DNA of 64,000 nt from Candidatus Hodarchaeota archaeon (GTDB lineage: Archaea; Asgardarchaeota; Lokiarchaeia; Sigyniarchaeales; SOKP01): NCBI GenBank assembly GCA_048887225.1, contig JBHLJY010000003.1, forward strand, positions 174,436-238,435, in the 5' to 3' direction. Shown piece by piece: positions 53,602 to 56,606 of this stretch (position 1 is the stretch's first letter; every line of letters begins with the position of its first letter). The position numbers were made by a program, and so were the translations under genes. The notes beneath the pieces are model-generated. The model was not told where the DNA came from, ran no database searches, and worked only from the letters and a program-made list of their open reading frames with translations.

Positions 53602-55218
53602 TTACCAATTTGATTTGTCTTTTAATAGCTTAAAGATATAAGAATCGACAAGAGCATCCCATGAAGCTACGATGATGTTTTCATGAGCTCCAATCGTGCC
53701 CCAAGATCCTTCTTTATCATATGTTTCTGCCAACACACGCACTTTTGAAGCAGTACCTTCCTTATTTATAATTCTCACTTTAAAATCTGATAAATCGATT
53801 TCTTTAATGCTTGGATAAAAATGTATCAAAGCTTTTTTAAGTGCGTTATCAAGGGCATTAACTGGACCATTACCTTCAGCTGCAGTATGATATTCTTTAC
53901 CTTCCACAAAAACTTTAATTGTAGCTTCAGAAATTAAATTATCTTTATACATCTCCGTAAGTACTCTAAATCCTTCTAATTCAAAAAATTTATTTCGATA
54001 ATAATTAGGGTCTTGTATATTCATGTCCATGCTTCTCATAATAATTTCCAACGATCCTTCAGCACCTTCAAAAGAATACCCATAATTTTCTTTTTCTTTT
54101 ATTATTTCAAGAATAGCTGCTACTTTTGGATTATTTTCAGTGAGTGGAATACCAAATTTTTTAGCCATGTGCATTATAGAGCTCCTACCGGCTAATTCTG
54201 ATACTTTTATATTTCGGGAATTCCCTACTAGTTCAGGCTCTATGTGTTCGTAAGTTTTGACATTCTTAAGCATAGCAGAGATATGAATGCCACCTTTATG
54301 TGAAAATGCATTTTTCCCTACAAATGGCTGATCTAGTTCACTGGGTAAATTCGCCATTTCATAAACAAAATGAGAAACTTCGGTTAAGTTTGTAAGATCC
54401 TCGTCTGATACGCAATCAATACCCATCTTTAATTTCAAAATGGGGATTATTGATGTTAGATCAGTATTTCCACATCTTTCGCCAAATCCGTTAATTGTTC
54501 CTTGAATTATTTTTGCACCATCTGCAAAGGCTTTAAGAGCAATTGCATTTGCTAATCCTGAATCGTTATGTGCATGAATCCCTAATGGAAGATTATTTCC
54601 TAAACAATTCTTTACATCAACTAAAATTGAGCTTAATTCGTGAGGAAGTATACCTCCATTAGTATCGCATAATACAATCCAAGAAGCCCCAGCATCTTTA
54701 GCAGTTGTCAGTGTCTTTAAAGCGTATTCTTTATTATCTTTATATCCATCAAAAAAATGTTCAGCGTCGTACATTACTTCTAATCCATTTTGTGTCAGAA
54801 ATTTGACTGTATCATCTATCATTTTTAGATTTTCTTCTAGACTTGTTTCTAACGCTGCTTTAACATGCAATTCCCAGCTCTTTCCAAAGATTGTAGCTCG
54901 GACAATTCCCGTTTTTAAGAGTGCTTGAATATTTTTATCATTTTCAACATTAATATTTTTTCGTCTTGTACTACTAAATTGATAAATTTTAGTGTCATCT
55001 AAATCCATTTTTTTAATTTTTTTTAAGAATTCAATGTCTTTTGGATTAGATCCTGGCCAACCAGCTTCAATCATAGGAATATGTAAATCTTGAATCAATC
55101 TTTCCAATATTCTTAATTTATCTTCTATTGAAAAGGCAATGCCAGTTTTTTGGCACCCTTCTCGAAGAGTTGTGTCATAAATGAATACTTTTTTATCTTC
55201 CAATGCTATATTCACCAA
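53602..55218 (-). CDS. cimA: Citramalate synthase (LeuA/CimA family)
   Basis: DTTLREG, GWPGSNPKD, YDAEHFFDGYK, HAHND, HKGGIH, GNGPVNALD; true start probably TTG 55203 after GGTGA. Confidence 0.9.
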   Translation of the reverse strand: MVNIALEDKKVFIYDTTLREGCQKTGIAFSIEDKLRILERLIQDLHIPMIEAGWPGSNPKDIEFLKKIKKMDLDDTKIYQFSSTRRKNINVENDKNIQALLKTGIVRATIFGKSWELHVKAALETSLEENLKMIDDTVKFLTQNGLEVMYDAEHFFDGYKDNKEYALKTLTTAKDAGASWIVLCDTNGGILPHELSSILVDVKNCLGNNLPLGIHAHNDSGLANAIALKAFADGAKIIQGTINGFGERCGNTDLTSIIPILKLKMGIDCVSDEDLTNLTEVSHFVYEMANLPSELDQPFVGKNAFSHKGGIHISAMLKNVKTYEHIEPELVGNSRNIKVSELAGRSSIMHMAKKFGIPLTENNPKVAAILEIIKEKENYGYSFEGAEGSLEIIMRSMDMNIQDPNYYRNKFFELEGFRVLTEMYKDNLISEATIKVFVEGKEYHTAAEGNGPVNALDNALKKALIHFYPSIKEIDLSDFKVRIINKEGTASKVRVLAETYDKEGSWGTIGAHENIIVASWDALVDSYIFKLLKDKSNW

Positions 55219-55250
55219 ATTATTGAAATTTTTTTTATTATATATCGAAA

Positions 55251-55317
55251 AAGAAATTTTAAACCAGAAGTCGTAAGAAAAGAAAAATCAAATCGCAAAA
55301 AGAGTTTAAAATTTCTT
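55251..55317 (-). promoter_or_regulatory. 14-bp perfect inverted repeat enclosing a U-rich 39-nt spacer in the cimA leader (candidate attenuator)
   Basis: AAGAAATTTTAAAC (55251-55264) and GTTTAAAATTTCTT (55304-55317). Confidence 0.6.
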
Positions 55318-55324
55318 AATGAAA

Positions 55325-55384
55325 TTAAATAATTCCAATAATAGCTATAATACCTATGACATTGATAGGAATTATTTTTTTCAT
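55325..55384 (-). CDS. Ile-rich leader peptide MKKIIPINVIGIIAIIGII upstream of cimA
   Basis: ATG..TAA, 10 of 19 codons are Ile; TATA-like element about 21 nt upstream of the ATG. Confidence 0.75.
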   Translation of the reverse strand: MKKIIPINVIGIIAIIGII

Positions 55385-55514
55385 TAGTTTTACAAAATAA
55401 TTGATTATTTATATTTTTTTTTAAAAATTGGACTATAAAAGAAATAAAAAATAAAATTGCTTTTTTATTTTTAATAAGAGATTTTAAGAAAAATCTTTAT
55501 AATGGTATGTAAAA

Positions 55515-56105
55515 ATGTCAATAAAATTTTGTCCTGAATGTGGGAACAAATTAGATAAAGAAGCAGATTTTTGTAGTTATTGTGGGGCTGATTTAAGAGA
55601 GAGAATTGCTCTAGAAAAAAAAGATAGGCCAACAACTCCAAAAGAAATAACAATTCCACCATCAGAAAAGATTTTAGAACCTAAAAAAGAGGATCTCTCT
55701 CAAAAACAATTAGCCGACTTCCTTCCTAGAATGGGTGCTTTAGTTATCGATTTAATGGCAATTTTAGGAATATCTACAGTAGCTTTCATATTACTTTTTA
55801 GACTTGGTTGGATTTTTATTCTGATCATTGTTCCATTGATAAGTTTTTTCTATTTTTGGATATTGGAAATAATAACAGATGGTCAGACATTAGGCAAAAA
55901 GGCTTTAAGTTTAAGAACAGTGAATGTAAATACGCTTGAACCAGCCGATCCTGGAGATTATTTTTTGAACAATTTGTTTAAATTCACTCCAATTACATTC
56001 ATTATTGATTTAATACTTGGTATTTTTATAAATATAGGAGACTCAAAGAAAAGATTACGACTCATGCAAAATGTATCTAAAACTTGTGTAGTTCGAACTA
56101 AATAA
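55515..56105 (+). CDS. Zinc-ribbon plus RDD family membrane protein
   Basis: FCPECG..FCSYCG; R..A.VID; GQTLGK. Confidence 0.85.
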   Translation: MSIKFCPECGNKLDKEADFCSYCGADLRERIALEKKDRPTTPKEITIPPSEKILEPKKEDLSQKQLADFLPRMGALVIDLMAILGISTVAFILLFRLGWIFILIIVPLISFFYFWILEIITDGQTLGKKALSLRTVNVNTLEPADPGDYFLNNLFKFTPITFIIDLILGIFINIGDSKKRLRLMQNVSKTCVVRTK

Positions 56106-56168
56106 ATAATTTTTTTATTTATCGGTTTTTATTTTCAATATCTGAATTATTTACAAGTATTTTATTAT

Positions 56169-56606
56169 ATGAAGGATAGAAAAATTTCTTCAAAAGAAGA
56201 ATATGCTGAATCATGGAAAAGAATAATCGCTTGGATTATTGATTCTGCAATTATACTCTTAACTACTTGGATTTTCTTTCTATTCGTTTTTCAAATGGAA
56301 ACTTTATTTTATTTTCTATTCCACTTAATTGCTTACTTATTTGGATTTTTTTATTTTTGGCTTTTAGAATCTTACAATAATGGTCAGACTTTAGGTAAAC
56401 TAATTTTTGGCCTAAAAACTGTAAATGAAGAGACATTACGTAAAGCATCTAAAGGAGATTACTTAAAAAACTGCATACTTAAATCTCATTGGCTTTTATG
56501 TATCATTGATGTTATTATTGGTTCTATTAATAATTATGGAGATCCCAAGAATAGATTGCGAATAATGCAAAACGCTTCTCAAACTGTTATTATTAAAGTT
56601 AGATAA
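56169..56606 (+). CDS. RDD family membrane protein (tandem paralog)
   Basis: KRIIAWIID; GQTLGK. Confidence 0.85.
   Translation: MKDRKISSKEEYAESWKRIIAWIIDSAIILLTTWIFFLFVFQMETLFYFLFHLIAYLFGFFYFWLLESYNNGQTLGKLIFGLKTVNEETLRKASKGDYLKNCILKSHWLLCIIDVIIGSINNYGDPKNRLRIMQNASQTVIIKVR

Follow-up and report, generated by a model that had tools for sequence, protein, structure and literature searches.

The isoleucine-rich upstream open reading frame (uORF) that precedes the citramalate synthase gene cimA in a 64,000-nucleotide (nt) window of a Candidatus Hodarchaeota archaeon genome (assembly GCA_048887225.1, contig JBHLJY010000003.1, positions 174,436 to 238,435) is very probably read by the ribosome as a sensor of isoleucine supply acting on cimA, as judged from a comparison of related genomes. 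The fuller proposal, i.e., that this leader peptide senses Ile and controls cimA in cis, with transcription termination as the preferred output, appears probable on balance. An earlier sequence-only reading of the window had also proposed a cognate leader peptide sensing Ile in front of cimA, together with a switch in which the position of the ribosome governs the folding of a downstream stem. The first part of that reading has gained strong comparative support, while the stem-folding switch was not supported.

All features of the leader lie on the minus strand of the window and are listed from start to end, that is from high to low coordinates (Table 1). The uORF contains 10 Ile codons (6 ATT, 3 ATA and 1 ATC) and a single Val codon, with neither Leu nor Phe; Ile occupies 7 of the 10 final residues, and the peptide ends in G-I-I-stop. 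These codon counts, the perfect 14-bp inverted repeat starting 7 nt past the stop, its pyrimidine/T-rich loop, the subsequent Shine-Dalgarno (SD) sequence and start codon, as well as a TATA-like box (TATAAATA) whose end is separated from the uORF ATG by 21 nt, had all been described by the earlier reading and were reproduced from the sequence. The 296-bp spacer holding the leader has a G+C content of 16%, in a genome of 3.27 Mb with 30.4% G+C. In approximately 26 orthologous loci an A-rich run and a TTTAAA-type box are found at a near-constant position, -38 to -22 from the uORF AUG, with the box itself at -33 to -22, and owing to this fixed distance the uORF transcript is predicted to be leaderless or near-leaderless.

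Strong support comes from the conservation of the leader. Across the 154 species genomes of the GTDB order, a cimA orthologue (E<1e-100) was present in 42, with a patchy distribution within the family. The set for family f1 comprised all loci with upstream DNA, i.e., 27 full leaders and one locus cut by a contig end. An Ile-rich uORF with the same RNA helices was found before cimA in all 27 complete leaders, in agreement with the recurrence before orthologous genes expected by the sequence-only reading, and the truncated 28th locus retains the 3' part of the leader. The uORFs of this family have 17-24 codons and lie about 105-135 nt ahead of cimA, every difference in length being in frame. In the 23 distinct peptides Ile accounts for 54% of the residues and for 86% of I+L+V+F+M (32% in the proteome). 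A covariance model (R1) constructed from 14 leaders matched 28 cimA loci with 61-153 bits, and a scan of the whole genome with the same model returned exactly one site, with no second copy, e.g., before ileS or ilv genes.

Similar ORFs proved not to be common in the AT-rich spacers of this genome. The uORF ranked first in Ile content among 3374 ATG-started ORFs of 8-45 codons situated wholly between roughly called genes of the genome. A scan for at least 7 identical residues in the last ten, with no residue preset, was passed by only five of the 2210 intergenic short ORFs of at least 12 amino acids. Three of these five were trivial poly-Lys ORFs, and the other two were the cimA uORF and an ORF with a Leu run ahead of leuA. 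When the bases of the uORF were shuffled, 10 Ile were reached in 0 of 2000 trials and the frame stayed open in 13%. For every one of 23 loci, shuffles that preserve the bases gave p<=0.0025 for reaching the Ile count of the real uORF.

Cognate uORFs before other amino acid biosynthesis genes were also found in the same genome. The Leu-run ORF mentioned above (G000 contig C11:2901-2999 (-), locus L040) has 32 codons with 7 Leu in the last ten and is located 162 nt before leuA, the product of which matches NF002085 with 576 bits (cut-off 517). A stem (GCCUUC...GAAGGC) directly follows its stop, and in the minimum free energy (MFE) fold the Leu codons pair with an A-rich stretch ahead of the leuA SD. 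A Trp ORF of 23 codons with four alternating Trp (G000 contig C1:374997-375068 (+), locus L033 98-169) is found 175 nt before trpD (TIGR01245, 400 bits, cut-off 199). A 6-bp GC-rich hairpin carries the stop codon of this ORF in its loop, and a T6 run follows. Leu-run ORFs recur ahead of leuA in 17 of 21 related loci; for trpD, a Trp-rich ORF was found in about 11 of 15 related loci, and these belong to three families. More than any other finding, these counterparts at leuA and trpD allow an amino acid sensor to be told apart from a small membrane peptide. It is more probable than not that Asgard (Promethearchaeota) archaea run a ribosome-read attenuation regulon, built of a start-pairing helix around a leaderless uORF and a subsequent stem with an oligo-U loop. 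The leaders of this regulon would be rich in Ile, Leu and Trp, with Phe and Ala/branched-chain-rich leaders, the latter before ilvE, as possible additions.

Two further ORFs were observed in this respect. An Ala-run ORF of 30 codons ending V-V-L (G000 contig C4:112950-113042 (-), locus L038) lies 166 nt before ilvE (NF009897, 409 bits) and may be another leader, though Ala is no obvious cognate. A 17-codon ORF ending FFFFFLF (G000 contig C7:87160-87213 (+), locus L179) lies 116 nt before a gene of 394 amino acids, for which no NCBIfam match was found.

The RNA of the leader is organized in two helices, P1 and P2. In both the MFE fold and RNAalifold, P1, which the earlier reading had not described, encloses the entire uORF: the AUG and the bases following it pair with UUCAU just past the stop, so that CAU lies opposite AUG, and the I-I-P codons (AUAAUUCC) are the reverse complement of the G-I-I codons (GGAAUUAU). 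Across loci P2 is an AU-rich stem of 11-14 bp with a loop of 29-49 nt. Pair counts were obtained on the model-based alignment A3 (28 sequences); A1 was also used, and the 27-sequence MAFFT alignment A2, in which the G-I-I codons were misplaced, was dropped. In A3, 95.8% of the cells of P1 and P2 are paired, versus 26-65% after sliding of the 3' partners, and the value for the inner helix of P1 is 97%. U.G pairs are frequent, suggesting that the helices act as RNA of this strand, the only sense in which U.G can pair. In P1 such pairs occur in eight loci, and L008 carries a compensatory C-G pair.

The outer pairs of P1 were tabulated by eye, since A3 places the AUG of L001-L004 out of register by 3 columns. 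The nucleotide preceding the AUG, which is A in L001-L004 and U in the other loci, co-varies with the one that follows CAU (U vs. A, respectively), and the sixth P1 pair is retained in 17 of 27 loci. Inspection by eye also revealed a change from AAAC/GUUU to AACC/GGUU in three loci, a U-to-C change in L049 that is accompanied by A-to-G in the pairing partner, insertions in the L005 group that correspond to each other in the two arms, and a re-registered P1 in L048 and L052, where CCAAUAAU is paired to AUUAUUGG.

The loop of P2 carries a run of at least four T in 22 of 23 loci and at least two such runs in 17 of them. On average over the 23 loci, the loops are 57% U, and A makes up 52% of the spacer that follows P2. 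The first T-run of the loop begins 26-28 nt past the uORF stop in 12 of 22 loci. These runs are candidates for archaeal sites of termination or pausing. An Rfam cmscan of positions 54000-56500 (E<=10) returned three chance-level matches to unrelated families and no leader family.

In two loci the stop codon of the uORF is lost. It has changed from TAA to CAA in L010 (G012), where the frame passes through P2 and ends 7 nt before the cimA ATG, and from TAA to AAA in L053 (G055), where three codons are added and the new stop abuts P2. These variants could be either informative natural mutants or assembly errors.

The architecture extends to a second family, f2 (L024-L026 and L055 of genome G042), in which cimA is preceded by an ORF of 35-37 codons whose tail is rich in Ile. 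Here either the AUG is paired with a CAU lying among the Ile codons, or the ORF as a whole is enclosed by a helix of 11 bp, and a stem directly follows. This stem is unrelated in sequence to that of f1 and GC-richer, and it occupies the same position with a U-rich loop. No Ile-rich uORF was found before cimA in families f4 and f3 of the same order or at locus L056.

The dependence of the fold on the ribosome was assessed by masking the uORF with ribosome footprints placed early, midway, late or on the stop codon and recomputing the ensembles for 23 orthologues with an equilibrium model. According to the sequence-only reading, the position of the ribosome should control the folding of the 14-bp stem. 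The models gave no support for this, as P2 forms in all masked states, save about ten loci in which a ribosome at the stop codon largely abolishes it. Within this model, P1 is the helix that depends on ribosome occupancy and the sole structural variable to do so. In the locus of this genome, a classical alternative in which AAUUUC near the stop pairs with GAAAUU in the 5' arm of P2 was recognized by eye; it was rejected, being lost in orthologues carrying AAAUUC and thermodynamically negligible. Across the ribosome masks, neither the SD nor the start of cimA became systematically more or less accessible, and sequestration of the ribosome-binding site (RBS) was rejected for this reason. Masked folding therefore supports neither the textbook three-helix switch nor RBS sequestration.

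A mechanism compatible with these observations can be proposed. Transcription would start approximately 25 nt downstream of the TATA box, placing the 5' end of the RNA at the uORF AUG or a few bases from it. A pioneer ribosome would load on the nascent RNA and would have to decode the 10 Ile codons, seven of them in the last ten positions. As long as it remains on the uORF, it would keep P1 open by occupying the AUG and I-I-P codons on one side and the G-I-I codons, stop and CAU on the other. With ample Ile-tRNA the ribosome would reach the stop and depart, upon which P1 would close and stack on P2. The distance of 26-28 nt from the stop to the first oligo-U tract would correspond to about one ribosome-plus-polymerase contact distance, so that, on estimated footprints, a polymerase at this tract would touch a ribosome parked on the stop. 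Termination, whether intrinsic or mediated by FttA/aCPSF1, would take place at the oligo-U tracts located within or downstream of P2. Fast completion by the ribosome would lead to frequent termination and stalling on Ile codons to relief, with more CimA when Ile is scarce.

The translation of the uORF, the transcription start, the termination output and the sign of the response are all inferred here, and the sign (more CimA at low Ile) is taken from physiology and not from sequence. Premature transcription termination is tentatively favoured as the output because of the conserved oligo-U tracts of the loop and the known modes of archaeal termination. Archaeal polymerases terminate at oligo(dT) tracts, oligo-U being the sole requirement, and FttA prefers U-rich nascent RNA and requires uncoupling from translation (PMC13681488).

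A number of observations weigh against the termination sensor. The 5' arm of P2 has no conserved upstream partner (median probability 0.02, including transcripts cut before the 3' arm), no terminator/antiterminator alternative appeared in the masked folds of the 23 orthologues, and none of the simple models built yielded the physiologically expected sign. Only 8 of 23 loci have a run of at least four T behind P2, and this, together with the AU-rich stem and the large loop, suggests that P2 is not a bacterial-type terminator. Covariation is thin, with four compensatory cells in three pairs of P1 and P2, because the sequences of the helices are so strongly conserved. Furthermore, a promoter of its own for cimA could lie in the AT-rich stretch that separates P2 from the SD, and the threonine ammonia-lyase gene ilvA is also present in the genome without any leader.

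Among the alternative explanations, the one that survives best retains the sensor and places its output after transcription, i.e., the stalled ribosome would alter the stability, processing or translation of the cimA mRNA. The stack of P1 and P2, once closed, or the U-rich loop, when exposed, might be a target for a nuclease or for cleavage by aCPSF1, or a stalled ribosome close to the 5' end might block 5'-to-3' decay. We consider this unlikely. In its favour, the opening and closing of P1 is the only occupancy-dependent structural variable, no conserved T-run follows P2, and the uORF looks leaderless, like the mycobacterial Cys short ORFs that act by RBS sequestration. The pairing of Leu codons with the A-rich stretch ahead of the leuA SD points in the same direction. 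On the other hand, the predicted indifference of the cimA SD and start to ribosome position in 23 orthologues speaks against this alternative, and the conserved oligo-U tracts are better read as termination signals.

The inverted repeat could also be understood at the level of DNA, either as an operator with two half-sites for an Lrp/FFRP-type regulator of branched-chain amino acid genes or with its 3' arm as the TATA box of cimA, the uORF being incidental. In archaea, genes of this kind are commonly under the control of regulators of the Lrp family. The arms are AT-rich, the 3' arm holds TTTAAAAT, resembling the TATA-type boxes of the lineage, and the centre-to-centre spacing of the arms is 53 bp in this genome, or about five helical turns. 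Across loci, however, the arms are separated by 29-49 nt without helical phasing, and their variants, such as TTTGGAAT and TTTGAATT, are G.U-compatible on the sense strand only and make poor TATA boxes. The matched insertions in both arms of the L005 group and the GC-richer stems of f2, of unrelated sequence at the same position, also speak against it, and the Ile-specific ORF would be left unexplained. This explanation is therefore quite improbable.

It is very improbable that the uORF encodes a small hydrophobic membrane or signalling peptide with a function of its own, co-transcribed with cimA or merely adjacent to it. The product is indeed hydrophobic, long enough for about one membrane span and conserved, with an N-terminal Lys or Asn-Lys and conserved Pro and Gly residues. 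A membrane helix, however, tolerates exchanges among I, L, V and F, yet Ile dominates these positions even though, in an AT-rich genome, a single mutation suffices to reach Leu (TTA) or Phe (TTT), and the conserved Pro and Gly codons form the CC/GG core of P1. Length and interior sequence vary freely, the element is found only before cimA, and of its Leu-run and Trp-rich counterparts at leuA and trpD the latter are not membrane-like. Finally, although a spacer of such low G+C content favours Ile codons, the idea of a chance ORF in AT-rich DNA is refuted by the comparative data and retains practically no credibility in view of the Ile rank, the C-terminal scan, the shuffles and the maintenance of the frame in 27 loci with in-frame length changes.

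The identity of the downstream gene, proposed earlier as citramalate synthase, was established by a match of 698.6 bits to TIGR00977 (equivalog cut-off 450), covering profile positions 1-522 of 526. Its start was placed at TTG 55203 and not at 55218, as in a longer ORF call, because an ATG occupies the former position in some orthologues. The gene appears to be monocistronic, since the next gene downstream converges on it. A CimA paralogue encoded on contig 11 scores as LeuA rather than as citramalate synthase. The product of ilvA (G000 contig C9:5197-6321 (+), locus L177) matches TIGR01127 with 499.7 bits, and the gene has a short upstream spacer. The genome also encodes four acetohydroxyacid synthase (AHAS)-like paralogues. 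The upstream regions of ilvA and of three of these four AHAS-like genes were checked, and no leader ORF was found. As judged from gene content, both routes to 2-oxobutanoate are thus encoded, and cimA is the one leader-controlled entry to isoleucine among those checked. In this organism the leader would then single out cimA rather than ilvA as the point where entry into isoleucine synthesis is regulated.

Outside the Asgard genomes of the same family (73-97% identity), the next matches of CimA are bacterial, in Omnitrophota, Deltaproteobacteria and Paenibacillus (50-57%, loci L111-L173). CimA proteins of other Asgard families of the same order share 47-53% identity, with one at 61%, so that the bacterial matches are equally close or closer. 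This pattern hints at horizontal transfer of this type of cimA. A transfer of the leader together with cimA from bacteria was considered and rejected, as the 63 bacterial loci whose CimA is 50-57% identical have no Ile-rich uORF.

Table 1. Positions of cimA and of the elements of its leader in the 64,000-nt window.
Feature	Position	Strand	Description
TATA-like box TATAAATA	55413-55406	minus	-29 to -22 relative to the uORF ATG; A-run on its 5' side
uORF, 19 codons + stop	55384-55325	minus	ATG 55384-55382, TAA 55327-55325; product MKKIIPINVIGIIAIIGII
P1 5' strand	55386-55368	minus	Two bases before AUG, AUG, Lys codons and I-I-P codons (AUAAUUCC); MFE, RNAalifold, pair counts
P1 3' strand	55336-55317	minus	G-I-I codons (GGAAUUAU), stop and UUUCAUUA; MFE, RNAalifold, pair counts
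P2 5' arm AAGAAATTTTAAAC / AAGAAAUUUUAAAC	55317-55304	minus	Starts 7 nt past the stop; no gap after P1
P2 loop, 39 nt	55303-55265	minus	59% T, 77% pyrimidine; T5 55301-55297, T5 55287-55283, T4 55281-55278
P2 3' arm GTTTAAAATTTCTT / GUUUAAAAUUUCUU	55264-55251	minus	Perfect complement of the 5' arm; T5 55252-55248 overlaps its end
A-rich spacer	55250-55204	minus	Contains SD GGUGA (55216-55212), 8 nt before the cimA start
cimA, citramalate synthase	53602-55203	minus	TTG start 55203; 533 codons; TIGR00977

The 296-bp spacer is shared by the leader promoter and a divergent neighbour (window 55515-56105 (+)), which encodes a 196-amino acid protein with an N-terminal CPxCG...CxxCG zinc-ribbon; no NCBIfam match was obtained for this protein. 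In addition, the top single-residue outlier among the intergenic short ORFs was a Cys-rich ORF of 39 amino acids with three CKCG-type repeats (G000 contig C4:200341-200460 (+)), the sequence of which resembles that of a precursor of a modified peptide.

In bacteria, attenuation by the ribosome is a textbook mechanism, and it requires transcription and translation to be coupled. Archaea possess a eukaryote-like polymerase, terminate transcription at oligo-U tracts and through FttA, and often produce leaderless mRNAs, so that an archaeal attenuator must be built differently. The sequence-only reading regarded such control as essentially uncharacterised in archaea, and in full-text literature searches we likewise found no published report of an archaeal leader-peptide attenuator. 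If the proposed regulon is real, it would be the first case of leader-peptide attenuation in archaea, wired unlike the bacterial terminator/antiterminator switch, and it would be evidence, at the level of function, that transcription and translation are coupled in the prokaryotes most closely related to eukaryotes. The leader also offers a small, defined and mutable template for asking how the ribosome talks to the archaeal polymerase, and amino acid regulation could be read directly from the genomes of uncultured Asgard archaea.

The closest parallels are the enterobacterial attenuators, i.e., ilvL of ilvGMEDA, ivbL, leuL, thrL, trpL, pheL and hisL. In both cases an ORF with cognate codons directly precedes the first pathway-specific gene, conserved RNA helices and U-runs follow the ORF, and Ile, Leu and Trp leaders occur in one genome. 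As in pheL and hisL, the regulatory codons are clustered just before the stop. However, the present host is archaeal, with a B recognition element (BRE)/TATA promoter and an apparently leaderless uORF, the mutually exclusive 1:2, 2:3 and 3:4 helices are not predicted, and the helix encloses the whole uORF including the AUG. Instead of a GC-rich hairpin followed by a U-run, an AU-rich stem is found whose 29-49-nt loop itself bears the oligo-U tracts, and archaeal termination proceeds through oligo-U tracts and FttA, not through hairpin-driven release. The leader differs also from the Rfam leader families (Leu_leader, Thr_leader, Trp_leader, His_leader and Phe_leader), with which it gave no covariance-model match.

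A second parallel is the mycobacterial 'Cys ribulon', in which a ribosome stalled on leaderless polycysteine short ORFs blocks an RBS-sequestering duplex and thereby acts on translation (bioRxiv 10.1101/834739, Canestrari et al.). In both systems a short ORF rich in one amino acid, predicted to be leaderless in the case of cimA, precedes genes for that amino acid, and several loci respond, or here would respond, in parallel through ribosome pausing. They differ in that the in silico accessibility of the RBS is insensitive to ribosome position in the cimA leader, and in that oligo-U tracts are conserved there. The cimA leader thus joins a bacterial sensing principle to an archaeal host with different wiring, a combination that is new relative to the literature.

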